Under the pieces are notes generated by a model, which searched no databases, had not been told where the DNA came from, and saw nothing but the letters and a program-made list of their open reading frames with translations. From Candidatus Parcubacteria bacterium (GTDB lineage Bacteria > Patescibacteriota > Patescibacteriia > UBA1558 > GWA2-36-10), in the NCBI GenBank assembly GCA_018669975.1, contig JABHSK010000002.1, positions 73,293 through 137,292 of the forward strand: 64,000 nt of DNA, given 5' to 3'. The stretch's first letter is position 1; each line of letters begins with the position of its first letter. Made by a program: the position numbers and the translations under genes. Shown here piece by piece: positions 18,193 to 41,207 of this stretch.

Positions 18193-18957
18193 TTAGTGAC
18201 CATGCGGCACAACCTGCACCACTAGATACATCAACGCCGCTCCTATTATCAGCCAAATAGAGTGTATTAGAATCTTCTTGGGATTTTCCTCATGGTGCAA
18301 CTCTGGAATCAAATCAGCTGTAGCTAGATAAATAAAATTTCCAGCCGCAAAAGCAACTACCAGTGGAATAATATGCGCAAAGTTATTACCAAAACCATAA
18401 AATAACAAAGCGCCCATTACAGCTACCAATGCTGTCAACAAATTATAAACAATAGCTTTAGCCTTTGATAGTCCAGCATAAAGTAAAACTCCAAAATCAG
18501 ATATCTCCTGTGGTATTTCATGAAGCAACACAGCTACGGTTACTGTTAGGCCGGCATGAAAATCCAACATAAAAGCTGAAGCAATTAATGCACCGTCTAC
18601 AAAATTATGAATACCGTCACCAATCAAATTAATAACTGCTAATTTTTTCTTATTTTCAACAGATGGCTTCCCATGCTCCTCACAATGACAATGATGCCAG
18701 TGCACAATCCTTTCCAAAAGAAAGAAAAATATTATACTAACTAATACCACCGTCAAAGTAATTCGTACGTCAAATTGACTTTCCTCTATAGCTTCTGGTA
18801 ATAAATCTAGGAAAGCTACTGCCAATAGAGAGCCTGCCGCTAAGCTAATTAATGCCCTAAGAAAGCTACGTTTATTTTCTTTTTTAAATATTAACAACAC
18901 GCCAATAAGGGATATTAGACTGACCAATAGTGTTGCTAAAATTATATTTATTAACAT
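18193..18957 (-). CDS. ZIP-family zinc/metal transporter (ZupT-like)
   Basis: HNFVDGALIA and HEIPQEISDFGVLL motifs. 8 TM helices and a His-rich loop HWHHCHCEEHG. Confidence 0.85.
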   Translation of the reverse strand: MLINIILATLLVSLISLIGVLLIFKKENKRSFLRALISLAAGSLLAVAFLDLLPEAIEESQFDVRITLTVVLVSIIFFFLLERIVHWHHCHCEEHGKPSVENKKKLAVINLIGDGIHNFVDGALIASAFMLDFHAGLTVTVAVLLHEIPQEISDFGVLLYAGLSKAKAIVYNLLTALVAVMGALLFYGFGNNFAHIIPLVVAFAAGNFIYLATADLIPELHHEENPKKILIHSIWLIIGAALMYLVVQVVPHGH

Positions 18958-21524: not shown

Positions 21525-21566
21525 TTATAAATTACTATTTTTTTAAATAATATATTTTCATTATAA

Positions 21567-21597
21567 CAAAAAACCATTCCTTTTGGAATGGTTTTTT
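21567..21597. repeat. array element copy 1 (hairpin-only form)
   Basis: aaaaaaccattccttttggaatggtttttt (stem ccattcc/ggaatgg). Acts as a bidirectional terminator. Confidence 0.55.
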
Positions 21598-21619
21598 GTT
21601 ACTTATACATATTTATTGA

Positions 21620-23554
21620 TTATTGAGGTACAAAATCCTCAGTTGGTCGGATGTCTATATACTTGCTTGGTGGGCAAGTAGCCCTATTTAAAAGTAAACT
21701 ATCGTGATATGGCTTACCATTTCGATCGTAGAAATAAGCTTTACTATTATTCCCCTCTCCCCATCCTGGCACCAAAGTAGGCGGCACGCAAAGGTTATAA
21801 TATCTACTCCCATCAGCTGTAATAGAAATATTTCTATAAGGAAGATTAAATATCTCTATTGGACCTGCGTTTAAAAGCATAGCTAAAGGAGACTTTATAT
21901 TGTCTCCACTTATTGGATTTAAATCTGAATAAACATTGTCTGTTAAATTTAATACTCCTATATGTTCCATATGTTGAAAATCAGCCTCGAAGACAGCATC
22001 AACAGAATAATTCAGAATACCTGGCTCTACATCTAAATCTCGATCTAACTCTGCGGCACTTATATTTTGTACGTCCAGTGCCCTAGCTAATATATCATCA
22101 CAATCCTGTGGTATAGCTCTACGCATCAACAAACTATCATAATATGGTGTACCATTGTTATCATAAAAATATAACTTGCGCTCATAGGGAGGTAGGTCTC
22201 TAACAGGAATGACTGTTTTTGGCACACAAATGGTATGACTATTGCCATCAATATCAGAAATGTTAACTATACGTGCTGGTACAGTTTTTTGTTCCTGTTG
22301 AGCATCCACATGATCCACTTCTATAACTAAAGGGGCTTTCTTACCAATATCACCATATCCTGAGCCAAGATTAAAATAATTTCCTCCTAAATCCAGGGTT
22401 CCATAATAGGTCCAATAGGTATTAAAGTCCACCAAGAACTTGATCTCTGGTGCATAATGAGGAAAGTCTCGCACTGTCAAATTAGCGTTAGCATCACCAA
22501 TATCCTCAATATCTAGAGCCCTATCTAAAACAGTATTACAATCCACTGCCAATGCTCTTTGTGTCAATAAAGTATCGTGATAAGGTGTGCCGTTTTTATC
22601 ATAAAAATAGATCACTGGCTCAGGATAGAGCAGAGAATGCCCCATTAATTCGGTGGCTGGTAAACAAATATTATATTCTTGGCCTTCAAAATCAGAAATA
22701 TTAATTATCCTAGCTGGCACAGTTGTACTCTCATTCATTGACCCACCTGAAATACTCACTGCTAAAGGAGAGGTTATATTATTAGGCATGCCATTGCCAC
22801 CACCAAAATTATTTATACTCATATCTAAAAAACCAAAATCATGTGTATAATCCTGAAAGTCTGTATGAAACTTTGCATGAATTTGATGGTTGGTCTCCAC
22901 CATAGTAACTAAATTAACTACGGCTGAACTAATCTCCTCTATGTCTAGAGAATTTGCTAAAATTTCATCACAATTTTTAGATAGTACTCTTTGACCAAGC
23001 AACGCATCATAATAAGGATTTCCCTCAACATCATAATAATAAGAAAAGCTATCATTTGGCCAATCATTTGGCCCTGCAGTTTCAGTAGTTGGCATACACA
23101 AATTATATTCCTGGCCCTCTAGACTAGAAATATGAATAATACGTGATGGAATAGTCTGAAGCCCAGAAGCAGAATGGCTCAATTTTACTTGTAATGGGCT
23201 AGTACTAGAAGTGTATACTGGGCTACCTTGATGATAATAATTTGTTTCTATATCTAACCTTCCTAAATTAGTATCATCTATTATAAATTCTGCGCTAGGC
23301 CTAATCTGACCCTCCCAGTAAGCCATGCTAACCTTGGCATCACCAATATCTTCAACCATTAAAGGTGTAGGAACAACCCTAGGTAAAGGTACAAAGTTTC
23401 TACTTTTAGTAATCCTCATGGGCTTTTTTACCATACCCATAGCCAGGCCGGCAAAATTAAGCCCTAACATAAAAGCAGATATCATCATTATACCGATGAC
23501 TACTTTTTGCGCAGTGGCCACTTGTCCTTTGACCTTTGTTTTTGCTTTTTTCAT
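21620..23554 (-). CDS. membrane-anchored secreted protein with four tandem ~130-aa Cys-pair repeats
   Basis: N-terminal TM anchor, then four repeats of (I/V)P(A/S)RI(I/V)NIS-EGQEYN(L/I)C-P-TE ... YFYD-NG-PY(Y/H)D(S/T)LL-(Q/R)RA...CD-(I/V)L-RALD(I/V)(E/Q)(D/N)I. Confidence 0.55.
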   Translation of the reverse strand: MKKAKTKVKGQVATAQKVVIGIMMISAFMLGLNFAGLAMGMVKKPMRITKSRNFVPLPRVVPTPLMVEDIGDAKVSMAYWEGQIRPSAEFIIDDTNLGRLDIETNYYHQGSPVYTSSTSPLQVKLSHSASGLQTIPSRIIHISSLEGQEYNLCMPTTETAGPNDWPNDSFSYYYDVEGNPYYDALLGQRVLSKNCDEILANSLDIEEISSAVVNLVTMVETNHQIHAKFHTDFQDYTHDFGFLDMSINNFGGGNGMPNNITSPLAVSISGGSMNESTTVPARIINISDFEGQEYNICLPATELMGHSLLYPEPVIYFYDKNGTPYHDTLLTQRALAVDCNTVLDRALDIEDIGDANANLTVRDFPHYAPEIKFLVDFNTYWTYYGTLDLGGNYFNLGSGYGDIGKKAPLVIEVDHVDAQQEQKTVPARIVNISDIDGNSHTICVPKTVIPVRDLPPYERKLYFYDNNGTPYYDSLLMRRAIPQDCDDILARALDVQNISAAELDRDLDVEPGILNYSVDAVFEADFQHMEHIGVLNLTDNVYSDLNPISGDNIKSPLAMLLNAGPIEIFNLPYRNISITADGSRYYNLCVPPTLVPGWGEGNNSKAYFYDRNGKPYHDSLLLNRATCPPSKYIDIRPTEDFVPQ

Positions 23555-23644
23555 AGTTATTAAATTTTTAAGAATTTATTTTATATAAAAATATTATACC
23601 ACAAATAAATATATTTTGAAAATATAAATTTTTTTTAATCAAAA

Positions 23645-23668
23645 AACCTACCTTTTCGGTAGGTGGTA
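23645..23668. repeat. array element copy 2 (variant hairpin cctacc/ggtagg)
   Basis: aaaaaacctaccttttcggtaggtgg. Terminator for the GH3 gene. Confidence 0.45.
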
Positions 23669-23689
23669 AATTTATTATAATGGTTTGTC

Positions 23690-24820
23690 TCAAATTTCTT
23701 TCTTTAATTTCAATATTTTTAATACACTGGCATCAATCTGCTCCATACTTATCTCTCCATCATTTACAGCTTGGATAATCGCATTATATGCCTCAGCTTG
23801 TTTTTCTGGTGTACTAGTATACAGCAAAATGTCATTGCCAGCCTGTATAGCTTTTACCGCTGCCTCAACATTTGAATAATTATTAATCAAAGCGCCCATT
23901 TCCATATCATCAGTAATAACAACGCCATTATAACCAAGTTGATCTTTTAAAATATCTTGAATAAAAACTTTTGACAGGCTACTTGGATTACCCTTGTCTA
24001 TATTTTCATATACTATATGACCAACCATAATCATCTTTGGCTCACTCTCTCTTATTACATCCTTAAATGGTTGTAAGCTATTACCTAACTCTGTTTTAGT
24101 AATGTAGACCGTAGGTAAATCTTGATGGGAATCAATAGAGCCATTGTCATGCCCAGGAAAATGTTTTGGTACAGCAATAATATCATTATCTTGATAACCA
24201 GTTACCATTGACTGAGCTAACACAGAAATATGCTCTAAACTACCCCTGAAAACCCTGTTATATAAAAATGAATTAAAATTATCTATAATATCAAGCACGG
24301 GAGAATAATTTACATTTATACCCAAAGCCTTGAGCTCTTTGGCTCTAGCTACCGCTGTTGCATATGCCTGTTCTTCGCTATCAATCTCTGCCTGAGGGGT
24401 AAATTCTTCTACTCCCTTTATCTTTAGTCTAGAAACTACTCCACCCTCTTGGTCAACTGAAACAAATAAAGGAATACCTGGGTTAGTCTCCAGTGACATT
24501 TCTTGCAAGGTATCTATTAGTTCTTTTGTCTGCCCTTGATTAACAAAATTATACTTCATCAATATCACACCACCAATATTTCTTTGATTAATCATCTTAG
24601 AAATATAATAATCAGGTTTGGGGCCCCAAAAACCAACCATCAACATCTGACCAACTTTATCCTCTAGTGTCATGTTTTCCAACATCTGCCCTGGATCTAA
24701 GGTAGCCAATGTATTCACATCTTCAGTGGCTTGATCATTAACCTGTCTATCTCCAGTTACTAAAAAATAAACCAACCCCAAAGCAACTAAAATGATAAGT
24801 ATTAAAATTAACTTTTTCAT
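23690..24820 (-). CDS. glycoside hydrolase family 3 beta-N-acetylhexosaminidase-like (NagZ-like)
   Basis: KHFPGHDNGSIDSHQDLP signature plus an N-terminal signal anchor. Confidence 0.75.
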   Translation of the reverse strand: MKKLILILIILVALGLVYFLVTGDRQVNDQATEDVNTLATLDPGQMLENMTLEDKVGQMLMVGFWGPKPDYYISKMINQRNIGGVILMKYNFVNQGQTKELIDTLQEMSLETNPGIPLFVSVDQEGGVVSRLKIKGVEEFTPQAEIDSEEQAYATAVARAKELKALGINVNYSPVLDIIDNFNSFLYNRVFRGSLEHISVLAQSMVTGYQDNDIIAVPKHFPGHDNGSIDSHQDLPTVYITKTELGNSLQPFKDVIRESEPKMIMVGHIVYENIDKGNPSSLSKVFIQDILKDQLGYNGVVITDDMEMGALINNYSNVEAAVKAIQAGNDILLYTSTPEKQAEAYNAIIQAVNDGEISMEQIDASVLKILKLKKEI

Positions 24821-24829
24821 ACTTTTATA

Positions 24830-25393
24830 TTAAGAAATGTTATGACTAATAAACCTAAATATTATCCAAAATGAATATATACCAAAAATTCCAAAAACTA
24901 CAAATTTACTAAAAAAGTTTTTATTAGCTTTATTGGCAAAAAGAAAAGGCAACCAAGAAGTCAGTATAAATAAAAGAGCAGTGCCAATATAACTATTTTT
25001 TGCAGCTAATGAATGCCCAATGTCTATAAATATTCCCGATGCCCTATTCAAGGTATCCATTGAGTTAAAAAAGATCATTGCACCAAAACCTAAAGCAGTA
25101 GACACTAAGCCAAAATTTGCCAAATACGGTGCCCACTTTTGTTTTTGCGTTAAATCCCTCTTTAGATAAAATGTATATAGGAAAAAATAAAATAAAATAA
25201 GTATAGAAAATAATACTACAAATAATATTTGAATAGCATCTGTCTGGTCATATGATTCATCTACAAGCCTCAAAATCAAAAAATTCGGTATCAAATACGC
25301 TGTAACTATAACCATTATGACTACGAAAGAAAATAATACTCGCCGCCATAGTTTGGGCTGCTTCATTGGCATGATAGGCAACTCACTTTTCAT
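24830..25393 (-). CDS. polytopic membrane protein, hypothetical
   Basis: Five hydrophobic helices. Confidence 0.4.
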   Translation of the reverse strand: MKSELPIMPMKQPKLWRRVLFSFVVIMVIVTAYLIPNFLILRLVDESYDQTDAIQILFVVLFSILILFYFFLYTFYLKRDLTQKQKWAPYLANFGLVSTALGFGAMIFFNSMDTLNRASGIFIDIGHSLAAKNSYIGTALLFILTSWLPFLFANKANKNFFSKFVVFGIFGIYSFWIIFRFISHNIS

Positions 25394-25418
25394 AACTTTA
25401 TCTTTATTTTAAAAAAAT

Positions 25419-25763
25419 TTATATTTTTTGTTTACTTTTTTTAATTTTTTTTATAACCAAATAAGTAATACTATACAGCATTGTATAAACTACTGCGAAC
25501 ACAGCTGCAAACATACTAGCAATCAGTGGTGGTGTAGAACACCCCCCTCCCTGCATGGACATATACTTTTGCCCTTCTGGACAACTTGCAGAGCCCGCTA
25601 ATAAATACTCCTTCAAATCCATACCACAAGCCTCCATTAATTTCACCTCATCAGCTACAGGGTACCCACTAACACAAAGCATAGGCTGACTAAGCATAAT
25701 CATAAATGACAAAAACACAACTATTGCCAATAATATAAAATAGGTTTTACTAAAAAATTTCAT
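25419..25763 (-). CDS. small Cys-containing membrane protein
   Basis: Two TM helices flank a Cys-rich loop (CVSGY...CGMD...CPEGQ...GGCSTPP). Confidence 0.35.
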   Translation of the reverse strand: MKFFSKTYFILLAIVVFLSFMIMLSQPMLCVSGYPVADEVKLMEACGMDLKEYLLAGSASCPEGQKYMSMQGGGCSTPPLIASMFAAVFAVVYTMLYSITYLVIKKIKKSKQKI

Positions 25764-25772
25764 CGTTTTATA

Positions 25773-26876
25773 CTAAAAATCGTAATTATTATCTAAACTT
25801 TTTAAACATTTATTCCAACAAGATTCTGCATCTTCTTCATCATCACATTGATCACAACTAGCCTTAGGATACCAATATTCTCTTTCTGGAGAATAGTCTG
25901 GAGTCACCTCTTTTATCCTATTTACAATATCAGCAAGCTCCTGTGGGCAATCCACATAACAAATAACTCCTTTTAATTTTAAATTTTCTATGCTTTTTTC
26001 AACACCTTCTGGATAATAGCTATAAGTCATTGTATATACATTGTCTGCCATATCTTCTTCACCGATATCTTTATATTCATCAAATAATTCATCGTAATCT
26101 TCCAGGGCGATAAACAGGTCGTCATTATTCAAAATCATACCATACACCTCTTTATACTCCTCTTCTGAAATAATACTTCTGTTATAACGATCATTGTCTC
26201 CTAGCTTATACTGCAAAATTCCTGTATTCAAAAAATCAATTTCACCACCATCTAAAGACATTATATCTGATGTATTATAAAAACGGGTCATCACATGCTG
26301 TATGTCAGCTCCATCAACTAAATATGGCAATCTTTTACATACACCACTCTTACATCCATTTTCACAATCATATTCAATAAAACTATCTACGAAATAACCA
26401 CTGCCATCCCCCTCTTCAACACAAGTCATTTCTTTGACCTTTGACTTTCCTTCTACACTCATACACCTATCAGCAATCCGATGTGAAACGGCATTCTTGC
26501 TTATAAATTGAATATAACCATCTATATATTTATCGTCCTCGCCTTCAAAAGAATCACTATCAAAGCATGTCCCTGTTTTACATTCTCCGTCTCGCCACAT
26601 ACCGTCTGCTTCTACACAATTTTCTTGCATCCTTACTAGTCTGTCTTTTTCAAAATCACTTAATTCCACCCCCTGCTCTATACTGACAGCACCCCGATCT
26701 TTGTCTCCTGGTTTTGACAATTTATATTTTTTATATAAAGAAAACCCTGGACCTATTACTACTAAAACAAGAATAATAATACTAATTATTAATGCCCAAT
26801 TTTTTTTATCTTCGGCCAGCTCCTCATGTGACACTGGATTATACTCATGCTCCAAATTTTGATTTTTGTCTGCCAT
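25773..26876 (-). CDS. membrane-anchored Cys-rich extracellular protein
   Basis: TM anchor at residues 25-45 and more than 16 Cys in the ectodomain. Confidence 0.4.
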   Translation of the reverse strand: MADKNQNLEHEYNPVSHEELAEDKKNWALIISIIILVLVVIGPGFSLYKKYKLSKPGDKDRGAVSIEQGVELSDFEKDRLVRMQENCVEADGMWRDGECKTGTCFDSDSFEGEDDKYIDGYIQFISKNAVSHRIADRCMSVEGKSKVKEMTCVEEGDGSGYFVDSFIEYDCENGCKSGVCKRLPYLVDGADIQHVMTRFYNTSDIMSLDGGEIDFLNTGILQYKLGDNDRYNRSIISEEEYKEVYGMILNNDDLFIALEDYDELFDEYKDIGEEDMADNVYTMTYSYYPEGVEKSIENLKLKGVICYVDCPQELADIVNRIKEVTPDYSPEREYWYPKASCDQCDDEEDAESCWNKCLKSLDNNYDF

Positions 26877-26883
26877 ATTTTTA

Positions 26884-26938
26884 TTTTAATAACATGTTTA
26901 GTATACCAAAAAATCACTCCTAATGGAATGATCTTTTT
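26884..26938. repeat. array element copy 3
   Basis: ttttaataacatgtttagtataccaaaaaatcactcctaatggaatgatcttttt. Confidence 0.5.
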
Positions 26939-26951
26939 ATAATGAAATAAA

Positions 26952-27860
26952 TTATTTTACCTCTCCGTATGCGTCATCTTCAAATTTTTCCTTGAAGTAA
27001 GTAGCAAACTTTGAAGCAATATATACTCTAAATTTCTCAATGTCCACTTCAGAGGCCTTATTTTTTATTCTCTCCAAAACATTAGCTGGAAATATAGCTA
27101 CTAAAAATTCTGGATACTCATAGCTATCATCACCAGCTCGTTCATGCAACTCAACTAATTGGTCTTTAAGCTCTCCATATTTTGCCCATTTCTTTTCTAT
27201 CAAATACTCCCAATCATCTCCCGTTAAATCACTCTTATCAATTATATCTAAACCATCGAATTTAGTTTGTTTTGCAAACTCAGAAGCATCTAAACCTAAC
27301 TGGCTCATCTCTGCTTCAAGTACCTGATAGTCTAAAATATGCTTACCGCCGGAATCTTCAGCTGCTTTTTTCTTCATGGTAGCTAACATTTCCAATGATA
27401 TTGGCCTAACATTTATTCCACCTATCTCTTTTTCGTCTTCTGGAAAACCACTAGCTGGGAAACTCCAATCTGCCACTTCATAATTACCTGTTTCAGAATT
27501 TATATCAAGCATGGCAACGTCTGCCCTGATACCTGTCTCTGGATTAGTGGCTCTAAATTTGTTACCCCAACCTTCTTCAACTATAAAACCTCTGTCCTCT
27601 AAATCTAAAATCACCTCATCTATATCATCAGTAGTAGTAAAATAATCTATGTCATTTGTTATGTCTCTGTGTGGCTCACCTAAGTGTGCTGCTATTGATA
27701 AACTACCCATCAACCAAACCTTCTTACCATGCTCATTAAAAACCTTCTGAAAATCACTGGCAGATTTCAAAATTTCTGGACTTATACTGGCTTCTTTCTC
27801 TGTTTTTTCTACGACTCCTGCTACGGGAAGACTCTCTTTATTTCTATCTTCAAAACCCAT
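26952..27860 (-). CDS. hypothetical protein, possible minimal nucleotidyltransferase-fold N-domain
   Basis: MGSLSIAAHLGEPHRDITNDIDYF loosely fits G[GS]-x(n)-DxD. Weak. Confidence 0.3.
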   Translation of the reverse strand: MGFEDRNKESLPVAGVVEKTEKEASISPEILKSASDFQKVFNEHGKKVWLMGSLSIAAHLGEPHRDITNDIDYFTTTDDIDEVILDLEDRGFIVEEGWGNKFRATNPETGIRADVAMLDINSETGNYEVADWSFPASGFPEDEKEIGGINVRPISLEMLATMKKKAAEDSGGKHILDYQVLEAEMSQLGLDASEFAKQTKFDGLDIIDKSDLTGDDWEYLIEKKWAKYGELKDQLVELHERAGDDSYEYPEFLVAIFPANVLERIKNKASEVDIEKFRVYIASKFATYFKEKFEDDAYGEVK

Positions 27861-27894
27861 AATTCTAACTTAATTATTATACGCTTATATCAAT

Positions 27895-28191
27895 TTAGTA
27901 CTCTTTATTAGGATCAAAACAAGCACATTGTGAATATTCATGCTCTATACCAGCTGGCCAAAGAGTTCCCTTCTCTAGACATGCTGGCTTATCAACCTCA
28001 CCTGGACAAATAAATCCTAAATCTCTACAAGAAATACTAATATTGCACTCTAATTCACCTTTCCTTAATTGTTCATTGATTTCAAAATTTGAAAATGGTG
28101 CAAATGGTTCTGTGGTATCGGTATTTTTATCTGTAGTACAACCAGCTCCCATCAATAGTGGAATGACTAAAATTAATAAAAGTTTTTTCAT
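27895..28191 (-). CDS. small lipoprotein with 8 Cys
   Basis: Lipobox LLMGAGC plus a Cys-rich mature part. Confidence 0.4.
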   Translation of the reverse strand: MKKLLLILVIPLLMGAGCTTDKNTDTTEPFAPFSNFEINEQLRKGELECNISISCRDLGFICPGEVDKPACLEKGTLWPAGIEHEYSQCACFDPNKEY

Positions 28192-28213
28192 GTCCTTAAG
28201 TTTAAATGATTAT

Positions 28214-28546
28214 TTATAATTCTCCTTGTCCATAATCTTGTCCATAATCCAACTCCTCATTAGATTGGAGTTTATCTAAAAATCTCTGCAATATATCTGC
28301 ATTAGGTGATTCGCCAACATTTACAATCGCCTCCTGTAGAGCTTCCTCATCTTTATCCAAATAGGCCTGTGTGCCTTTCATGTACCAGACAAAATCTTTT
28401 TCCTTATTTTCTAAAACAGCCAGATCAATGGCTTCCTGTAAAAATTTTTTACCCTCTTCTATGTCACCAGCTGCCAATTTAGACTGTGCAGTATGAAAAA
28501 CCTCTATGTAGGCTGGCGATGGTGTTGATTCAAATATTTTCTCCAT
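28214..28546 (-). CDS. small acidic helical (TPR-like) protein
   Basis: 110 aa of helical repeats with no TM segment. Confidence 0.35.
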   Translation of the reverse strand: MEKIFESTPSPAYIEVFHTAQSKLAAGDIEEGKKFLQEAIDLAVLENKEKDFVWYMKGTQAYLDKDEEALQEAIVNVGESPNADILQRFLDKLQSNEELDYGQDYGQGEL

Positions 28547-28550
28547 GGCT

Positions 28551-28592
28551 TTAGTATATCAAAAAACCACTCCTTTTGGAATGATTCTTTAT
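28551..28592. repeat. array element copy 4
   Basis: ttagtatatcaaaaaaccactccttttggaatgattcttta. Confidence 0.55.
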
Positions 28593-28655
28593 GTAAAGAT
28601 TAGTAATTAGGATAAATTTAAAATTAGGTTTCCAGACCTCAGCAATCTCATATTT

Positions 28656-29435
28656 TTATTTTAATAGTTTTAATATCTCACTCTTTTTCCTCTTAGCCTC
28701 CAATTCACCAAACTTTATAATTTCTTTAAATTTTTTTTCTGTTTCTAATAGACCATAGGGGCTAGTGTTTGGTGTTAATAAAACATAACTATCTTTTGGA
28801 ACGCTTTTTATTTTTTCGGTTGTTATCTCTTGCTGCATTATCTTAATACTAGCACCTAAAACATCCAGCAAGTTTATCCTTTGTTTTTTACCTAAACTCT
28901 TATAAGGAGAAACATTTACCATGACATAATGTTTTATGTTTTTTGGAATAATTGAAAAGGGTACTTGGTTCAAAACGCCCCCGTCAATATAATATTGATT
29001 ATTAATCTTAGCTGGACTAAAAATACCTGGCACAGCTATACTAGCACGAATCGCTTTCATTAAATTACCCCTATCAAACACTACTTCAGAGCCACTAGAA
29101 ATATTAGTAGCATTTATGTACAGTGGTATTTTCAAATCAGCGAAATTATCTTTGCCAATAAACTCAAGAAATAATTTTTCCAATTTATTTAAATTTTTTA
29201 TACCCAAAGTGTTTAAAGAAAAATCAAAATTCTTATAAATTTTATTACTCAATATAAAGTCTTCTATCTCTTCTCCTGTTTTTCCAGAAGCATAAAAAGC
29301 TCCAATAACACCTCCCACGCTACAGCCAGCAATTACGCTCACATTTACATTAAGTTTATCCAAAACCTTTAGGACTCCAATATGTGCCATGCCTCTGGCA
29401 CCTCCTCCTGATAAAACTAAAGCTGTTTTTTTCAT
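28656..29435 (-). CDS. patatin-like phospholipase
   Basis: GGGARGMAHIGVL oxyanion motif, GCSVGG (GxSxG nucleophile) and a DGG catalytic Asp motif (YIDGGVLN). Confidence 0.8.
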   Translation of the reverse strand: MKKTALVLSGGGARGMAHIGVLKVLDKLNVNVSVIAGCSVGGVIGAFYASGKTGEEIEDFILSNKIYKNFDFSLNTLGIKNLNKLEKLFLEFIGKDNFADLKIPLYINATNISSGSEVVFDRGNLMKAIRASIAVPGIFSPAKINNQYYIDGGVLNQVPFSIIPKNIKHYVMVNVSPYKSLGKKQRINLLDVLGASIKIMQQEITTEKIKSVPKDSYVLLTPNTSPYGLLETEKKFKEIIKFGELEAKRKKSEILKLLK

Positions 29436-29473
29436 GTTCTTATTATAAAACTTTTATTCTAATTAAAATTATC

Positions 29474-30457
29474 TTAATCGGTTAGCTCCTCTTTTTTACT
29501 ATCAGAATAATACTGTTCTCCAATTCTGAACTTATTTGGATTCTCCCTAATAATCGTCGCTACTTTTTCTAGATCTTCCTTAGGTATAGTCACGCCCAAA
29601 ATTTCTGCAGTCCCCTCATGATAAGCAGAATCATATGCCTGAAAAGTTTTTCCTCCAACAGCTTCCGCAAGTGCTTGTGCTCTTTTTTGACGCTCAGAAA
29701 AATCATCAGGGCGCTTATTATCATAACCATCATTATCTACAGGCACTATTGCAAATACAATCATTACCTCGTCATATTTAATTGCTTCTTCAGATTCCTT
29801 AATAATGGGATTGTTCATAGCCTCTTCTTGCCTAAACCTATCCCAACGATAATCAGCCGTAGTTCCTTTGGTGCTACTCGTTTTACTTGGACGCCTTTTC
29901 TTTGCATCCACATTAAAATAATATGGATTATGCCAATCTTTAGTTGTGATAATATCCTCGTCTGTTAATATAGAAAACTCAGGTAGGCCAAAATCTTCAA
30001 GTGTACAATCTTGCCTAATAATATCTATTAGCACCGTCTCTTTATCTTTACCTAATCGCTCCCCGAAATCAATCAATTCTAAATGAATATTGTGCCTTTC
30101 CTCATCTATAAGACGTATCGCCGAGGCAATCTCCTTGTTTTGCAATCCTCCCGGTGAACGTTTTTCTATTTTTCTAATTTCTTTCACCTTAGCTTTATAT
30201 CGCTCCATAATTTCCCTATATTCTTTCAACACCTTTAATTCGTGCTCTTCTATGGCTTCAACTCTTCTATTTACTTCTTCTGGGCTATCAAAAGAATACC
30301 TTTCGGGCTCTCTTTCCGCTTCATTCTCCGTATCAGTCACCTCTGCACCCCTTTTTTTATCATTTCTTTCATCCTGATATTCTTGAGTGCCCTCGTCTAC
30401 GTCCTTTTTGGTAAATTTTGGCTCATGGGCAGTCATGCCCGGCTCTCTAATTGGCAT
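29474..30457 (-). CDS. acidic hypothetical protein (coiled-coil-rich)
   Basis: Highly charged N-terminal half. No motif recognised. Confidence 0.4.
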   Translation of the reverse strand: MPIREPGMTAHEPKFTKKDVDEGTQEYQDERNDKKRGAEVTDTENEAEREPERYSFDSPEEVNRRVEAIEEHELKVLKEYREIMERYKAKVKEIRKIEKRSPGGLQNKEIASAIRLIDEERHNIHLELIDFGERLGKDKETVLIDIIRQDCTLEDFGLPEFSILTDEDIITTKDWHNPYYFNVDAKKRRPSKTSSTKGTTADYRWDRFRQEEAMNNPIIKESEEAIKYDEVMIVFAIVPVDNDGYDNKRPDDFSERQKRAQALAEAVGGKTFQAYDSAYHEGTAEILGVTIPKEDLEKVATIIRENPNKFRIGEQYYSDSKKEELTD

Positions 30458-30480
30458 AAATATGTTATTTAATAATATAT

Positions 30481-30525
30481 TCAGTATATCAGAAAACCAC
30501 CTTGTTATAAAGTGGTTCTTTGATA
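30481..30525. repeat. array element copy 5 (stem variant ccacctt/aagtgg)
   Basis: tcagtatatcagaaaaccaccttgttataaagtggttctttgata. Confidence 0.55.
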
Positions 30526-30544
30526 CCTTGTTTAACTTTAGATA

Positions 30545-32055: not shown

Positions 32056-32056
32056 A

Positions 32057-32257
32057 TTATTTTTTATTATTTTTTATTTCTTCTATATTGTCTTCTTTTT
32101 TATTAAAAAAGATAAAAAATCCTATTACAACAAAAAAGGTCCCCCAAATCGCAAGCCAAAACCAATCTTCAGGTTTATCTGAAACTACATTAAATATTAC
32201 ATATAAACCCAATGCTATTAAGATTGTTCCTGCTATTGTTCGACTCGTGGTATTCAT
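32057..32257 (-). CDS. small two-TM membrane protein
   Basis: 66 aa, hydrophobic. Confidence 0.35.
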   Translation of the reverse strand: MNTTSRTIAGTILIALGLYVIFNVVSDKPEDWFWLAIWGTFFVVIGFFIFFNKKEDNIEEIKNNKK

Positions 32258-32269
32258 AATAATTTTATT

Positions 32270-32440
32270 TTAATAGCATGGCCCAGGCCACCTTCTCTAG
32301 ACTCGCCATTCACCTTGCCTTCAGTATATCAAAAAACCACTTGTTTATAAAGTGATTCTTTGCTAAATGGCCCATCGTAGACCCCTAATGTAGCGATAAG
32401 GGGCTGAGACATGTTCAGAACTTTTTGTTATGAAAATATA
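32270..32440. repeat. array element copy 6 (full, with GC-rich 5' block atggcccaggccacc...)
   Basis: Carries the tcagtatatcaaaaaaccacttgtttataaagtgattctttg core and a divergent distal part ending ttcagaactttttgtt. Confidence 0.55.
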
Positions 32441-32441
32441 T

Positions 32442-32981: not shown

Positions 32982-33004
32982 TTTTTCTTATTTTAATAAT
33001 AATA

Positions 33005-33095
33005 TAATTATACCACAAAACAAAAAACTAGCTAAGACTAGCTAATTTTTTGACTGGAATCTCCTATGAGGAGTGTTCAAAACTTTTTGTTATAA
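33005..33095. repeat. array element copy 7 (stem variant ctagcta/tagctag)
   Basis: ataccacaaaacaaaaaactagctaagactagctaattttttgactggaatctcctatgaggagtgttcaaaacttttt. Confidence 0.5.
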
Positions 33096-33122
33096 AACCA
33101 AAATAGAGGATATTTCTATACT

Positions 33123-33151
33123 ATTGACAAAATAGCTAAAATATGCTATAC
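33123..33151 (+). promoter_or_regulatory. near-consensus sigma-70 promoter (TTGACA-17nt-TATACT)
   Basis: ttgacaaaatagctaaaatatgctatact. Same architecture as the promoter at 12163. Confidence 0.5.
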
Positions 33152-33225
33152 TACTATATTAATCCGAGCAAAGATGGGCTTAAACCCCCTCCTTTGCAAG
33201 TCCGTTCCTTGTCAGGAGAAGAATA

Positions 33226-33525
33226 ATGCAGGAATTCAATTTAAACAATCGCGTCTTTGTTAAATTAACTCAACGTGGTGAGGAAGTGCTTAGTGCACAC
33301 ATCTCAAAACAAGCTAAGATTATCTCACACGTAAAAAGGCTTCATAACCTTCCCCAAGATGCGGCGTCCGCTGCAAAAATCACAACACTCTACGAGCCCA
33401 ACGAAGAGGGCTACATAGAAATAGAACTGTGGCATCTCATGGAAATCTTCGGTGCATACGCGCAAACAACAATTGACGAACCCTCGTTCGTCGGAAACTG
33501 CATTTACTTTACCCCTCCCAAATAA
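33226..33525 (+). CDS. hypothetical cytoplasmic protein (GC-richer insert, only plus-strand gene in the array)
   Basis: AGGAGA Shine-Dalgarno, no TM helix, composition visibly GC-richer than the flanks. Confidence 0.45.
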   Translation: MQEFNLNNRVFVKLTQRGEEVLSAHISKQAKIISHVKRLHNLPQDAASAAKITTLYEPNEEGYIEIELWHLMEIFGAYAQTTIDEPSFVGNCIYFTPPK

Positions 33526-33545
33526 TCTAATGGGAGACTGTTCAT

Positions 33546-33583
33546 GGGACCTAGCGATAATATCAAAGGGTCCTTTTCTTTTT
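33546..33583 (+). terminator. rho-independent terminator
   Basis: gggacctagcgataatatcaaagggtcc followed by ttttcttttt. Confidence 0.6.
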
Positions 33584-33587
33584 GTCT

Positions 33588-33655
33588 AAAAATCAAAAAA
33601 CCATTCCTTTTGAAATGGTTCTTTGATGGGTACTTTCAAAACTTTTTTAGTTGAG
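33588..33655. repeat. array element copy 8
   Basis: aaaaatcaaaaaaccattccttttgaaatggttctttgatgggtactttcaaaacttttttagttgag. Confidence 0.55.
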
Positions 33656-33656
33656 A

Positions 33657-34076: not shown

Positions 34077-34089
34077 AATTATAATTTAA

Positions 34090-34190
34090 ATAATAACTAT
34101 TTCATTATACCATAAATCAAAAAACCAACTAACATTAACCAATTCTTTGATGGAGTCCATTATGAGGCATGTTCGGAACCCAAATTATAG
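34090..34190. repeat. array element copy 9 (degenerate hairpin)
   Basis: aaatcaaaaaaccaactaacattaaccaattctttgatggagtccattatgaggcatgttcggaacc. Confidence 0.45.
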
Positions 34191-34193
34191 AGA

Positions 34194-34553: not shown

Positions 34554-34556
34554 AAT

Positions 34557-34660
34557 TTTAATTTAATAACATTCTCAGTATATCAAAAAACCACTTGTTT
34601 ATAAAGTGATTCTTTGATGGGGTCCTCTATGGGGTACTTTCGGAACTTTTTTGGTTGAGA
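34557..34660. repeat. array element copy 10 (full-length)
   Basis: tttaataacattctcagtatatcaaaaaaccacttgtttataaagtgattctttgatggggtcctctatggggtactttcggaacttttttggttgag. Confidence 0.6.
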
Positions 34661-34672
34661 ATCCTAATGTAC

Positions 34673-35176: not shown

Positions 35177-35179
35177 AAT

Positions 35180-35282
35180 GTTATTTTAATAACATTCTCA
35201 GTATAACAAAAAACCATTCCTTTTGGAATGATTCTTTGACTGGGATCCTCTATGGGGTACTTTCAGAACTTTTTTAGTGGAG
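35180..35282. repeat. array element copy 11 (full-length)
   Basis: aatgttattttaataacattctcagtataacaaaaaaccattccttttggaatgattctttgactgggatcctctatggggtactttcagaacttttttagtggag. Confidence 0.6.
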
Positions 35283-35311
35283 ATGAATGAAAATGATATG
35301 AAAAGATTAGA

Positions 35312-35803: not shown

Positions 35804-35807
35804 AATT

Positions 35808-35922
35808 TTAAATTAAATAATAACATTTTAATTATACCACAAATCAAAGAATCATTCCTTTTGGAATGATTCTTTGGCTGGGGTCCTCTATGGGGTACTT
35901 TCAGAACTTTTTTGGTGGAGAA
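35808..35922. repeat. array element copy 12 (full-length)
   Basis: ...caaatcaaagaatcattccttttggaatgattctttggctggggtcctctatggggtactttcagaacttttttggtggag. Confidence 0.6.
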
Positions 35923-35945
35923 TGGTGAAGAAATAAAAAAAATTA

Positions 35946-36299
35946 TTAGTAATAATGACTAAAAAATATTATTGAGAAAATAAATCCTAAAATAACAATC
36001 ATAAAATAAATTTGCTTATCCCATCTTTCCCATTTACTTTTTATTACCTTTTTATTAAAAATTTCTTGCCCATTTTTATCAAAATAATCTTCATAGTGTG
36101 TGGCCTTCATAATCTGATAGTGTCTAATAGCTAAAATCAGATATAATATAATTATAACTAATAAAACGTATTTATTATAATTAGCACCTATGTTTTCAAT
36201 ATATATTTTATATAATGGATACCCAAACATAAAAATATATATTGTTTCTACAAAAATAATAGATTTTCTAATATTATTATCAAATTTTACCTTGTTCAT
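35946..36299 (-). CDS. small membrane protein
   Basis: Three TM helices. Confidence 0.4.
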   Translation of the reverse strand: MNKVKFDNNIRKSIIFVETIYIFMFGYPLYKIYIENIGANYNKYVLLVIIILYLILAIRHYQIMKATHYEDYFDKNGQEIFNKKVIKSKWERWDKQIYFMIVILGFIFSIIFFSHYY

Positions 36300-36302
36300 A
36301 AA

Positions 36303-36405
36303 TTAAAATTTATGTATTAAGTATATCAAAAAACCACTTGTTTATAAAGTGATTCTTTGACTGGGGTCCCCTATGGAACACTTTCAGAACTTTTTTGGTT
36401 GAAAC
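36303..36405. repeat. array element copy 13 (full-length)
   Basis: ttaagtatatcaaaaaaccacttgtttataaagtgattctttgactggggtcccctatggaacactttcagaacttttttggttgaaac. Confidence 0.6.
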
Positions 36406-36440
36406 TAGTAAGGAAGAGATGGAAAAATTAAACTATTTAA

Positions 36441-38378: not shown

Positions 38379-38382
38379 ATTA

Positions 38383-38470
38383 TTATTTTTAATAACATTT
38401 TCAGTATATCAAAAAACCACTCCTTTTGGAATGATTCTTTGACTGGGGTCCCTTACGGACCTTGGTTATA
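38383..38470. repeat. array element copy 14 (distal part truncated)
   Basis: tttttaataacattttcagtatatcaaaaaaccactccttttggaatgattctttgactggggtcccttacggacc. Confidence 0.55.
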
Positions 38471-38495
38471 ACTACATCTTGATAATTACATATTA

Positions 38496-40178
38496 CTAAT
38501 AGTCTACGCTTGGACGCTCCTCAGTGTCGCAAAATCCTCGATCATTACAGCTCAGACCACTAGGGCAACCACATCTCTGGCAATTATCTACTACGTTACT
38601 ATTCTCACAATATTTTGGCTGCTCATGAGGAGAACAATAATCATTCAAATCTATGGTATTAATACAAAAATTATTAAACACATTAGAAATATCAATTAAA
38701 CTTGGACCATCCAAACCAAATTCCTTTGTTGTGGCTATATACTGCCAAAAATCACTATCTTCTTTATATTTATTTTCATCCGACCATTTGACTATATCTT
38801 GAACATCTTGATTTCTTAATACATATGGATACAAAACATTAAATAACTCTTTTGTCCCTTCCAAAAGCCCCGCCCTGTAACCCGGTATATAAGATTCTGC
38901 CACAGAAGGCATAGTCATTAGCTGATGAATATCTCCAAAAATTTCATTATCAATATATAGACTGGCTATTTCATCTTTATCACTATATTCTGCTAAATTT
39001 GCCAATAGTTTAATCAAGTTCTTTATCCCATTAGAATAAAAAACTCCTAGACGGGATTGAACATTGGGATAAAGTGCCATAGATTCATAAACCATATGAT
39101 TATCTTGATTTACACCCATTAAATATCCTCCACTACCGTCAGCTCTCCAAAAATGATATGGCTGTTTATAATTTATTTTATCCAGTTCATAAGAAAATTC
39201 TAATTGATAATCAAATATGTGTGCCATCTTCTCTATTACTTCATTATTTAGCAACTCATTACTCACTAAGGTAGGATTAGCCTCAAGCAACATATTAATA
39301 GTTTCTGGAACACTTATTAAATCAGAAAAAATAAAATTACTAAAGATAGGATCATAATGTTGCAGGTTGTCATTATAATCTTCTGGCATATCCATCAACA
39401 ACTCCTTTTCTCCAATAATAGCTTCCAATCCTGTTTCTTTACGATAATTACATAACATTTTATCAAATAAAGCGGAGGCATAATTTTCATTCACGTACAC
39501 TGGATCAGCTATATTATTATTTATATATGTTAGCTCTGAAGCAATGCTATTACTCTCTCCATACTTAAAAGCAACCATGTCATCCCATTCAGATGCACTC
39601 AAGCTTCCCTCAATTAAAAATTTATCAATTAATTCAAAATATCTATCTATATAAGTAAATAATGGTGCATCAATTGTTGTAATTTCAAATTCGCTACTAC
39701 AGTCCCATTCTGATTCCACGTCATAAGGCGTATACAATAACAAATCGATATTATAAATAAATGGAAAACTATTCATTTGCAAGCCCCATGCATGGTAATC
39801 ATAATATACATTACTCTCATCATCTATAAAAACTTTGTAATCGCCCGTGCTCCCCAAAATTAATGAATAATTACCACTTACATCTGTGACACCAGTATAT
39901 ATTTCACTTTGATTATTAATATTGGTAAAAGTAACTACAATACCAGACAAAGGATCACTACTTATTACATCTTTTACATGCCCCAAAACCTGATTATTAC
40001 TCTGTTTAACAATCGCTGCTGGAACGTTTTTTTTCAATACCAACTTCTCAAAACTAACAGACATCATAGCAAAGGACATAACTCCAAACGAGAGAGCTGC
40101 TCCTGCCAAAACTAATAAAGCTAACTTAGTTTTTGTGTTTAAAGTGCTCTTTGTTTTTGTAGTCATTTCTATTGACAT
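38496..40178 (-). CDS. large secreted protein with C-terminal Cys-rich knot
   Basis: N-terminal TM/signal anchor. C-terminal CENSNVVDNCQRCGCPSGLSCNDRGFCD. Confidence 0.45.
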   Translation of the reverse strand: MSIEMTTKTKSTLNTKTKLALLVLAGAALSFGVMSFAMMSVSFEKLVLKKNVPAAIVKQSNNQVLGHVKDVISSDPLSGIVVTFTNINNQSEIYTGVTDVSGNYSLILGSTGDYKVFIDDESNVYYDYHAWGLQMNSFPFIYNIDLLLYTPYDVESEWDCSSEFEITTIDAPLFTYIDRYFELIDKFLIEGSLSASEWDDMVAFKYGESNSIASELTYINNNIADPVYVNENYASALFDKMLCNYRKETGLEAIIGEKELLMDMPEDYNDNLQHYDPIFSNFIFSDLISVPETINMLLEANPTLVSNELLNNEVIEKMAHIFDYQLEFSYELDKINYKQPYHFWRADGSGGYLMGVNQDNHMVYESMALYPNVQSRLGVFYSNGIKNLIKLLANLAEYSDKDEIASLYIDNEIFGDIHQLMTMPSVAESYIPGYRAGLLEGTKELFNVLYPYVLRNQDVQDIVKWSDENKYKEDSDFWQYIATTKEFGLDGPSLIDISNVFNNFCINTIDLNDYCSPHEQPKYCENSNVVDNCQRCGCPSGLSCNDRGFCDTEERPSVDY

Positions 40179-40182
40179 AATT

Positions 40183-40303
40183 TTATTTTAATAACACTTT
40201 AAGTATATCAAAAAATCACTCCTTTTGGAATGATTCTGTCGTGTTATAAACCTATTGGTCTGGGGGTCCCCTATAGGGGACTTTCGGAACCTTTTTAGTG
40301 GAG
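40183..40303. repeat. array element copy 15 (with ~25-nt internal insertion)
   Basis: ttttaataacactttaagtatatcaaaaaatcactccttttggaatgattctgtcgtgttataaacctattggtctgggggtcccctataggggactttcggaacctttttagtggag. Confidence 0.55.
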
Positions 40304-40321
40304 AATCCTGATTATTTATAC

Positions 40322-40930
40322 CTAAACGCCAATTTCTACTATATCTCCACCCCATAAATCCTCTATACTCTTAAGTATATTATTAAATTCAACAGGACAA
40401 AAGCCATAACACATAACTGCTTTTATGCTTGGCTTCTCTGTCATTCCACAAATATGGTTACCGCAAGTCGTTACAGATATTGTATAGTAAGTTCCATCCA
40501 TTAAATTATTATCTATGTAATTATCTTTTAAATCCCAAAAATGATTGCTATTTATTACATTTATTAAAATTTCATAGTCTGTAGAATCTACATCTCTTCC
40601 AATCTCTTTTCTAATACCATCGTCTAATATATTAGACTCAGCACTGTAAATAACTTGATTACCTTGAATCAATAAGTTAGCCTCTGAAAATGGTGCTTTA
40701 ACTCGTAAGCTTATATTACCTATAATTGGCTTGTGTTCAAATTTAACATCTCTGGACAAATTACTATATAAATCATTTAAAGTATTTTGTTTATCTATCT
40801 CTTTCCAAACAAAAACTCCCGTGATAAACAAAGCTCCCACTATCCCTCCAATAATGGTCATTACAACCACATCATTAAATCCTTCCTGTCTTGAGCGAAG
40901 TCGAAAGATTTGATTTTTAAATAATTTCAT
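40322..40930 (-). CDS. membrane-anchored extracellular protein (pilin-like N-terminus not canonical)
   Basis: Single N-terminal TM (VVVMTIIGGIVGALFITGVFVW) and 5 Cys. Confidence 0.4.
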   Translation of the reverse strand: MKLFKNQIFRLRSRQEGFNDVVVMTIIGGIVGALFITGVFVWKEIDKQNTLNDLYSNLSRDVKFEHKPIIGNISLRVKAPFSEANLLIQGNQVIYSAESNILDDGIRKEIGRDVDSTDYEILINVINSNHFWDLKDNYIDNNLMDGTYYTISVTTCGNHICGMTEKPSIKAVMCYGFCPVEFNNILKSIEDLWGGDIVEIGV

Positions 40931-41040
40931 AATTTATATTTTAATAACATGGCCCAGGCCACCCTCCCTGGCTTCGCCATTCACCTTGTCTTCATTATAT
41001 CACAAAACAAAAAACGAGCTAGGATTAGCTCATTCTTTGA
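40931..41040. repeat. array element copy 16 (GC-rich 5' block plus ctagcta-type hairpin), abutting tRNA-His
   Basis: ttttaataacatggcccaggccaccctccctggcttcgccattcaccttgtcttcattatatcacaaaacaaaaaacgagctaggattagctcattctttga, after which the tRNA-His gene follows directly. Confidence 0.55.
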
Positions 41041-41117
41041 TGGGGTGATAGATGGGATTTGAACCCACGACCGTCGGAACCACAATCCGATGCTCTACCA
41101 ACTGAGCTACTACCACC
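41041..41117 (-). tRNA. tRNA-His (anticodon GTG) with encoded G-1 and CCA
   Basis: The reverse complement folds as a cloverleaf: acceptor G-1 plus GTGGTAG, D-arm GCTCAGTTGGTAGAGC, anticodon loop TTGTGGT, T-arm GTGGGTTCAAATCCCAT, then C73 and CCA. Confidence 0.85.
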
Positions 41118-41132: not shown

Positions 41133-41207
41133 TGGTACCCCCAGCAGGAATCGAACCTACATCTACAGCTTAGAAGGCTGCTGTTCTATCCGTTGAACTA
41201 TGGGGGC
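41133..41207 (-). tRNA. tRNA-Arg (anticodon TCT)
   Basis: Reverse complement GCCCCCATAGTTCAACGGATAGAACAGCAGCCTTCTAAGCTGTAGATGTAGGTTCGATTCCTGCTGGGGGTACCA. Anticodon loop CTTCTAA, T-loop TTCGATT, encoded CCA. Confidence 0.85.

Follow-up and report, generated by a model that had tools for sequence, protein, structure and literature searches.

The question raised by this locus is whether a repeat that runs up to the 3' end of a tRNA-His gene records the serial integration of mobile DNA at that gene. The window, i.e. the whole stretch of 64,000 nucleotides (nt) that was analysed, comes from the genome of an uncultured Parcubacteria bacterium (Patescibacteria, or candidate phyla radiation, CPR; G+C 33% in the genome, 0.35 in the window), and its interval 40931-41117 contains tRNA-His and the 110 nt up to the next minus-strand gene. 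Here, we propose that the repeats, which we call junction elements, mark a gene-shuffling hotspot at tRNA-His and are not a clear scar of serial integration. Judged by similarity and position, they are a homologous repeat family confined to an interval that is anchored at tRNA-His, co-oriented and hypervariable. CPR/Patescibacteria genomes are tiny, and their acquisition and variation of surface and accessory genes is poorly understood.

The repeat family and the interval it occupies

The anchor and the first unit of the array, along the minus strand, consist of the following parts:
41133..41207, minus strand: tRNA-Arg (TCT), the upstream partner of tRNA-His
41041..41116, minus strand: tRNA-His (GTG) with encoded CCA (ARAGORN; Rfam tRNA model, 68.8 bits), whose 3' tip ...ATCACCCCA adjoins the first junction module
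41008..41040, minus strand: predicted intrinsic terminator of tRNA-His, from a terminator scan and from folds of sister copies, with A-tract TCAAAGAAT (41040-41032), hairpin GAGCTAATCCTAGCTC (41031-41016) and T-tract GTTTTTTG (41015-41008)
40994..41002, minus strand: putative extended -10 promoter TGaTATAAT of the first cassette gene, read by eye and conserved in the alignment
40931..40993, minus strand: GC-rich 5' leader, with a predicted hairpin (40989-40947) followed by GTTATTAAAAT and the start codon
40322..40930, minus strand: first cassette open reading frame (ORF), 202 aa, whose N-terminal ~50-aa anchor is common to array proteins of five other species and whose C-terminus differs from theirs
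18193..18957, minus strand: ZIP transporter gene, which is conserved and anchors the variable interval on the left (74% amino-acid identity to the closest relative, locus L051)

The array itself, as the original prediction had it, is real: repeat families D1-D11 span 21544-41046, and a profile built from 7 window copies (cut-off E<0.01) finds 15 matches, all on the minus strand, between 21.5 and 41.05 kb. Some 25 unrelated, co-oriented single-gene units lie between 21.5 and 41 kb with the repeat between them. The array does end at the tRNAs, with rpiB and rpe coming next. Our main search set comprised 397 kb (18 other loci besides the window and 20 kb of additional contig), and all 31 profile matches in it are on the strand of tRNA-His. 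At loci that include the tRNA, their distance downstream of its 3' end is 0-19.4 kb; three of them overlap the tip of tRNA-His itself. The profile has no match in the conserved flanks or in the unrelated CPR loci of this set, nor in the extra contig, 20 kb on either side of the window. A majority of the searched loci had been picked through the rpiB/rpe flank, which biases the sample, and further loci were obtained through homologues of one cassette protein to offset this choice. The complete genome GCA_018819405.1, fetched in this way, has 9 element matches at E<0.005 (with one more in L064), lying 2.6-20.7 kb downstream of tRNA-His in an array that stops before the ZIP gene. The tie to tRNA-His, co-oriented and downstream, also holds in this one genome from outside the flank-selected sample, and among the loci searched no related genome carries the elements in a region that lacks the tRNA. 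A pattern scan of JGI metagenomes gave a single new true locus (L035). An ENA contig of 163.5 kb carries the window sequence too, as do many shorter ones, some of them from marine oxygen-minimum-zone samples, and the closest species representatives are metagenome-assembled genomes of Parcubacteria with RpiB identities of 59-65%.

Each element is a modular repeat of ~70-140 nt, in the order left arm, ...CCCCA, terminator, extended -10 promoter and leader; promoters and terminators are throughout predictions from sequence. On the minus strand the left arm, (A)GGATTCTCCACYAAAAAAGTTCYGAAAGT (with TTTTCATAACAAAAAGTTCTGAA and CCAATCTAGGGTTCTGAAAGTGTCCC among its sub-types), is followed by a short and often degenerate palindrome (e.g. 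GTCCCCTATAGGGGAC or GGTCC-GTAA-GGACC) and by (C)ACCCCA(G). Then come the A-tract TCAAAGAAT, a hairpin with a handful of discrete alleles (CATTCCAAAAGGAATG, CACTTTATAAACAAGTG, GAGCTAATCCTAGCTC, TCGCCCTAAAGGCGG and CCCAATTTCATTGGGG) and a T-tract, the extended -10 box (TGnTATAAT or GATATACT; at the position of the promoter next to tRNA-His other copies carry GATATACT or TGGTATAAT), and a conserved leader, GAGAATGTTATTAAAAT..ATG, with GTTATTAAAAT ahead of the ATG. The terminators show the hallmarks of intrinsic termination in the scan (41039-41008, 35876-45 and 33052-21), and the RNA folds of element terminators have z-scores of -2.9 to -4.4, with which a separate scan of our own agrees. Since the terminators of the window outside the array each have a stem of their own and a plain AAAAAA tract, the repeated alleles being specific to the array, the array modules are homologous and not merely convergent.

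Extra DNA of 0, 1, 2, 22, 34 or ~110 nt is placed, in various copies, exactly after CCCCA and before the A-tract. In two species (L055 2181-2374 and L060 7683-7998) a 34-nt GC-rich nested hairpin, TCCCGTA(A/T)AGCTACTTCGTAGCCACGGGAC(A/G)CGG, sits exactly between CCCCA and TCAAA, and it is common to both although the flanking arms differ. Longer GC-rich inserts with a GGGTCTACGA motif occur at the same point in L007 (5673-5859) and in the window (32340-32400). The elements in the remainder of the array are:
40179..40321, minus strand: full-form junction element (93.6 bits), in the order left arm AGGATTCTCCACTAAAAAGGTTCCGAAAGT, palindrome GTCCCCTATAGGGGAC, CCCCCA, 22-nt insert, terminator CATTCC../GGAGTG, -10 box
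38379..38495, minus strand: junction element in which a GGTCC-GTAAG-GGACC hairpin precedes CCCAGTCAAAGAAT, terminator and promoter
36300..36440, minus strand: junction element with terminator allele CACTTTATAAACAAGTG
35804..35945, minus strand: junction element
35177..35311, minus strand: junction element, the reference copy of family D1 (101.7 bits)
34554..34672, minus strand: junction element with the exact block ACCCCATCAAAGAAT, common to the tRNA-His junction
34077..34193, minus strand: junction element, variant GGGTTCCGAACATG...GGACTCCA abutting TCAAAGAAT (families D6 and D9)
32982..33656, minus strand: long spacer with two junction elements (~33571-33656 and 32987-33088)
32258..32441, minus strand: junction element with GC-rich insert, promoter and the second copy of the GC-rich leader (family D11)
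21525..30544, minus strand: distal part of the array (families D1 and D4)
21525-21619, 26877-26951, 28547-28655 and 30458-30544, minus strand: terminator-promoter modules without a left arm

The interval that these elements occupy is replaced between species. To the right of the tRNAs, the genes for a 127-aa protein, RpiB, Rpe, a histidine kinase, a giant surface protein and PFOR are syntenic in all relatives, as is the tRNA-His/tRNA-Arg pair with its rpiB/rpe flank in all relatives examined; to the left, gene content is entirely different between species. In the closest relative, L051 (Rpe 86% amino-acid identity, flank 81% nucleotide identity), the ZIP gene and tRNA-His are kept as anchors, 7.4 kb apart against 21.8 kb in the window, and the interval between them has in common with the window only a 179-aa gene and one leader with the N-terminal anchor, at differing relative positions. 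This 179-aa gene (91% amino-acid, 87% nucleotide identity) lies above the flanks, including the core flanking proteins (74-86%). No cassette is common to the window and the more distant species. The ancestral downstream flank of tRNA-His (GATACCCCCAAAGTAGAGTTCGAACTA) was sought as a displaced copy in the window array and not found.

Set against this turnover, the junction modules are 80-98% identical between species, always at non-orthologous positions, while core coding flanks have 66-72% DNA identity. The module at 40925-41040 matches an internal module of L055 at 93% over 116 nt, 32320-32362 matches the tRNA-His flank of L007 at 97.7% over 43 nt, and 40263-40313 matches L055 at 90%. Left-arm types are combined with terminator alleles in many ways: the GAGCTAA.. 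allele, which follows tRNA-His in the window, elsewhere follows four different left arms. Thus, one chromosomal site, from tRNA-His to ZIP, has been replaced completely between related species, and its non-coding modules far outlast the core genes in identity. If the modules are recombination joints, be they site-specific or homology-based, this would be a dedicated gene-shuffling locus in the CPR/Patescibacteria, and the element profile would be a sequence handle with which to find such loci in metagenomes. The locus also supplies predicted terminators, an extended -10 promoter and a structured leader from organisms whose transcription signals have hardly been described.

What the elements share with tRNA-His

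How far do the elements resemble the tRNA at which the array begins? The original prediction saw in them a resemblance to degenerate copies of the tRNA-His 3' end. The strings quoted in its support are in place (41031-41065 and 34609-34646), and the identical block, TTCTTTGATGGGGT, has exactly two occurrences (34610 and 41033); allowing up to 2 mismatches gives 4 matches against 0.81 expected, a number that 0/100 shuffles attained. On the gene strand the block reads ACCCCA plus TCAAAGAAT. Of this, tRNA-His contributes ACCCCA only (the last of the acceptor strand, C73 and CCA), and nine of the 14 bases, TCAAAGAAT, are terminator A-tract. The 'ttctttga' block of the original prediction is, according to the terminator scan and the RNA folds, this A-tract and not tRNA sequence. 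The scan gives the tRNA-His terminator a 14-pair stem (CAAAGAATGAGCTAATCCTAGCTCGTTTTTTG, 41039-41008), and in folds of sister copies the A-tract pairs with the U-tract, lengthening the hairpin. What tRNA-His and the elements significantly share is the junction itself, ...(C)ACCCCA(G) joined to TCAAAGA...

For the body of the tRNA, the proposed resemblance to the pattern GGGGT-6nt-TGGG-TTTgaAC was not confirmed as better than chance by profile searches, shuffles or control tRNAs. In ~220 kb searched by nhmmer, the 3' 45 nt of tRNA-His, or the whole tRNA, found true tRNA-His genes only and no element at E<=100. Local alignment of each copy against shuffled controls gave p=0.03-0.65 for the window copies, and one copy alone, GGGTTCTGAAAGTGTCCCATAAGCCACCCCA of L035 from another contig, reached p=0.001; together with L055 (...CTATGCCACCCCA) and L060 (...GTGGCACCCCA), it belongs to the more tRNA-like copies beyond the window. 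A family-level anchored test, in which the tRNA segment was shuffled and scored against 16 copies, gave p ~0.02-0.05, and 0.07-0.09 once the last 7 nt were removed. Across the last 20 nt there are 11-13 ungapped matches for tRNA-His and 10 for tRNA-Arg and tRNA-Val, so that beyond the last 5-9 nt the likeness to tRNA-His is marginal and no better than that to the other two. Direct repeats of the tRNA-His 3' end (at least 16 nt with up to 3 mismatches, or 24 nt with up to 6) are absent from the window, L007, L008, L009 and L011. In short, the elements do carry the tRNA-His 3' end for its last 5-9 nt, whereas a 45-nt segment is not demonstrable. We also rejected the elements as partial tRNAs, the Rfam tRNA model having no match on them and only the tip being shared.

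The tip nevertheless recurs where the terminator does. Terminator modules with a CAAAGA-type A-tract gave 43 regular-expression matches, some of them inside coding sequence; CCA stands 0-2 nt upstream in 21 of the 43, CCCCA in 15 and CACCCCA in 9, and 6 of these last 9 are real tRNA-His genes. Both CCCCA followed directly by TCAAAG and CCCCAG followed by TCAAAG are found at tRNA-His genes of different species and in internal elements, and cores with the tRNA tip, including GGCACCCCA and GCCACCCCA, occur in L060, L055 and L035. It is unlikely, on these patterns, that a C-rich pentamer at a fixed position beside a homologous terminator in a 33% G+C genome is coincidence. Functional constraint acts on the copy at the tRNA, so that the most probable ancestor of the elements is the 3' tip of tRNA-His together with its terminator.

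Possible recombination at the junction modules

In light of these observations, what might the modules do? The best explanation we can offer, and one we hold tentatively, is that they are joints of gene flux used by homologous or short-homology recombination. They would serve in the gain, loss and re-assortment of genes between ZIP and tRNA-His; new DNA would enter directly 3' of ...CCCCA; donor DNA would be taken up from related Parcubacteria; and tRNA-His with its terminator, like the modules themselves, would provide portable homology. The differences between species end at module boundaries, but at several different ones. Between the window and L051, homology breaks off after the T-tract (41007/41008) and ~10 nt before an ATG, as well as where the 179-aa gene reaches its stop codon and within the 202/305-aa ORF, and because these breakpoints fall at several places we favour homology-driven mosaicism. 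Given these multiple breakpoints, near-identical tracts of 40-116 nt and no integrase, homologous or short-homology recombination is slightly more likely than a dedicated site-specific recombinase. A model for it is provided by the minimal mobile elements of Neisseria, a naturally transformable bacterium in which conserved flanks enclose exchanged cassettes (PMC2649163).

Several points weigh against this proposal. Homologous recombination alone fails to explain inserts that lie exactly 3' of CCCCA, and the conserved core between divergent arms is only ~15 nt, short for RecA-dependent exchange. No strain-level cassette polymorphism is seen among 19 same-strain contigs from several samples that carry identical proteins and a single, fixed gene order, and the cassettes are only putatively mobile. 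Confinement to the locus was checked on 84 kb of the source genome and on ~20-kb pieces of the relatives. As to the modules, the palindrome is contiguous in about half of the copies (mean stem 3.4 against 2.45 +/- 0.48 in shuffles), and a generic promoter scan found 66 sites against a shuffled expectation of 51 +/- 7, barely above it.

A second and possible explanation keeps the original idea in modified form: the junctions would be att-like scars left by a recombinase acting on the short core (C)ACCCCA(G)TCAAAGA, each junction being an attL/attR-type hybrid. The cassettes (promoter, ORF and left arm, without an integrase) would be mobilised by a recombinase encoded elsewhere, as integron cassettes or XerCD-dependent elements are, and newer inserts would displace older ones from the tRNA. 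In the window, and in all relatives with the tRNA on the locus, the array has its anchor at tRNA-His and is strictly co-oriented with it, as expected of insertions that start at the 3' end of a tRNA and run in its direction. Moreover, a core of ~15 nt that keeps 5-9 nt of the tRNA tip stands between independently assorting left arms and terminator alleles, and the point directly 3' of CCCCA takes inserts from 1 nt up to an island of at least 7 kb.

This island, in L058, begins exactly after the ...CACCCCA of tRNA-His and encodes a 541-aa large serine recombinase (5600-7225, plus strand; Resolvase, Recombinase and Zn_ribbon_recom domains), whose ORF reaches into the antisense strand of the tRNA-His gene (7139-7214, minus strand), along with restriction-modification genes (an N6/N4 methyltransferase and ResIII/SWI2-SNF2). 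Since it abuts exactly that tip, recombinase-borne elements do target the tRNA-His tip in this clade. The profile search found no junction elements in L058, the one locus with a recombinase, a point against att-like scars. The original prediction had seen no integrase in the window, and this holds for the array of the window and for eight array-carrying relatives, in which Pfam scans and precomputed Pfam assignments of all called genes show no recombinase in or beside the arrays. The integrase search was extended to 20 kb beyond each end of the window, where there is a tyrosine recombinase of 260 aa (L053 1-412; at ~63.4 kb of the source contig, ~10 kb left of window position 1), with a Phage_integrase and a faint Phage_int_SAM_1 domain. 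It counts in favour of att-like scars and is the only recombinase seen on 84 kb of contig; it lies ~51 kb from tRNA-His and is probably an Xer-type housekeeping enzyme. A dif/Xer-like 11-6-11 site was sought in the module by eye, with no convincing match.

Serial integration at one tRNA is documented for tycheposons, additive, tRNA-anchored islands in which older insertions are displaced inward by newer ones and partial tRNAs are left behind (10.1101/2020.12.28.424599). Our locus resembles the tycheposons of Prochlorococcus and the P4-type islands, which have direct repeats of tRNA 3' ends, in its hypervariable interval that starts at a tRNA 3' end, co-oriented and with the tip sequence repeated inside, and in the integrase-bearing element at the same tip in one relative (L058). 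It differs from them in that the tRNA segment is 5-9 nt, against ~40 nt typical there, that the arrays hold neither integrases nor integrase fragments, that the units are single genes of 0.4-2 kb, and that the repeat runs ~100 nt past the tRNA into a terminator-promoter-leader module. The two defining features of tRNA-integrating elements, a long repeat of the tRNA 3' end (none of 16 nt or more, and a tRNA body that fails to detect the elements) and an adjacent integrase, are thus both lacking. Breakpoints beyond one core, a tRNA-His terminator that looks orthologous between the window and L051 as far as the T-tract, and the absence of insertion or deletion variants within the population of 19 contigs likewise argue against scars. 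Of the idea of att-like relics of serial integration, the anchoring, the hypervariability, the tip and the precedent of L058 stand, and the length of the tRNA repeat, the integrase and the single core do not.

It is doubtful, in our view, that the array is the product of an integron-like but unrelated capture system, in which a recombinase acting in trans would insert self-expressing cassettes serially at the ~15-nt core over the tRNA-His CCA tip. Recombination would then take place at the ultra-conserved junction modules, and a cassette would consist of promoter, leader, ORF and left arm. As in integron arrays and their integrase-less relatives, the CALINs, there are long series of co-oriented, unrelated ORFs, mostly of unknown function, each followed by a ~100-nt repeat that is more conserved than the genes, and as in CALINs there is no integrase beside the array. 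Unlike integrons and CALINs, the elements lack both R''/R' cores and a bulged palindrome of the attC type: RYYYAAC/GTTRRRY cores were found in 0/32 strand-scans of 16 intergenic elements (shuffled expectation 0.22), which also counts against att-like scars. In further contrast to integrons, every cassette has its own predicted promoter and terminator, and the head of the array is tRNA-His, not attI/intI, with no tyrosine recombinase within 50 kb.

It is unlikely that the elements are purely regulatory repeats, inherited vertically and with no part in gene flux. On this account they would be the strong terminator-promoter-leader units of a locally expanded, highly expressed surface-protein cluster; tandem duplication would have multiplied them, gene conversion and selection would maintain their similarity, and CCCCA would match tRNA-His only because the tRNA has the terminator in common with them. 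Clear terminator and -10 features, the stable gene order of the population, a covarying pair in the leader that is consistent with selection at the RNA level, and one adjacent paralogous pair (33657-34076 and 34194-34553, 39% identity) all suit it. The ORFs between the modules are otherwise unrelated, and the gene content of the interval is replaced completely between species. Hairpin alleles, loops included, are identical at non-orthologous sites where core identity is 66-72%, which structural selection on a terminator would not predict; CCCCA (at ~-50 from the start site) has no evident role in a terminator or promoter.

By its predicted signals, each of the ~25 genes at 21.6-40.9 kb looks like an autonomous promoter-gene-terminator unit. 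Phage 'morons' are autonomous insertions of this kind, and the genes here, each between its own predicted -10 promoter and factor-independent terminator, resemble them. They differ in lying outside a phage genome (without phage genes and with only one weak PHROG match) and in that the flanking signals are a homologous repeat family.

A miniature selfish repeat of the MITE, Correia or REP kind, inserting between genes and with incidental terminator and promoter signals, is highly improbable: its size (~100-140 nt), its weakly inverted-similar ends (ATTCTC...CAAAAAA vs TTTTTTG...GAGAAT), the GC-rich hairpin inserts (the 34-nt one in L055 and L060 included) and the high conservation across species would fit, but all 31 copies of the main search set have one orientation at one locus, their left and right parts assort independently and not as a unit, and no target-site duplications, transposase or match in phage or plasmid collections was seen. 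Correia elements are dispersed genome-wide in both orientations, and the repeats described here, at one locus, on one strand and with weak inverted similarity of their ends, are unlike them. The Neisseria Correia repeat enclosed elements are short intergenic repeats with promoters, processing signals and clear terminal inverted repeats (PMC2649163).

Other searches gave the modules no closer relative. BLAST with the element against phage and plasmid collections had no match, a pattern scan of viral contigs for a phage origin yielded one chance match, and literature searches for CPR islands and cassettes brought up nothing specific. Two readings of the left part of the element were tried and set aside: a conserved RNA hairpin (~2 standard deviations over shuffles, with wobble changes inconsistent between strands) and a plus-strand micro-ORF, MGYFQNFFG..., running through the palindrome (start codon absent in some copies, changes non-synonymous).

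Cassette genes, leader and neighbouring features

What, then, does the array carry? Its genes encode a GH3 protein, a patatin, a bactofilin, a YbjQ protein, a reprolysin-like protein and many small membrane or secreted ORFs without a family. The 179-aa membrane protein of the array (32442-32981, minus strand) has a paralogue outside it (63132-63653, minus strand).

The GC-rich leader next to tRNA-His, RCAAGGTGAATGGCGAAGCCAGAGAGGGTGGCCTGGGCCATGY, lies between the -10 box and GTTATTAAAAT..ATG; some elements, the one next to tRNA-His included, carry it as an additional 43-nt hairpin. Its second copy in the window is:
~32318-32276, minus strand: second leader copy

The leader is also present at L051 ~2810, L055 ~2212, L008 ~3179 and L007 ~349, with different genes following it in five species; the set comprises 6 distinct sequences from 5 species and a one-base strain variant (L002). 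RNAalifold gives its hairpin one covarying pair (A-U/G-C/G-U). At E<=10, Rfam finds nothing on the elements or the leader, and since the leader has no Rfam match it may be a new cis-regulatory RNA. An upstream ORF within it (MAKPERVAWAMLLK) was considered and rejected, its start being lost in L008 and its changes non-synonymous.

The ~50-aa N-terminal membrane anchor of the first cassette protein defines a family with further members at L051 1861-2778, L055 2375-3295, L008 737-1927, L009 2323-3048 and 3491-4393, and L060 2684-3742 and 10001-10918. Their C-terminal domains are unrelated, and the GC-rich leader stands ahead of members in three species, which suggests domain swapping downstream of a conserved 5' module.

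One ORF of the array runs the other way, between the two elements of the long spacer:
33226-33525, plus strand: 99-aa ORF, G+C 0.43 against 0.35 in the window

It is the sole plus-strand ORF within the array, has a weak match to phrog_5792 (E=4.8e-5) and no homologue in the loci of the relatives, and is preceded by TTGACA-17-TATACT with TG (33124-33152), the best of the region's sigma-70-like promoters.

Outside the array, only the tRNAs and two c-di-GMP-II riboswitches of the window pass the gathering thresholds of Rfam 15. These tandem aptamers (RF01786; 16756-16839 and 16910-16993, plus strand; 73 and 72 bits) precede the ORF at 17140-17862, which encodes 240 aa and has no Pfam family.

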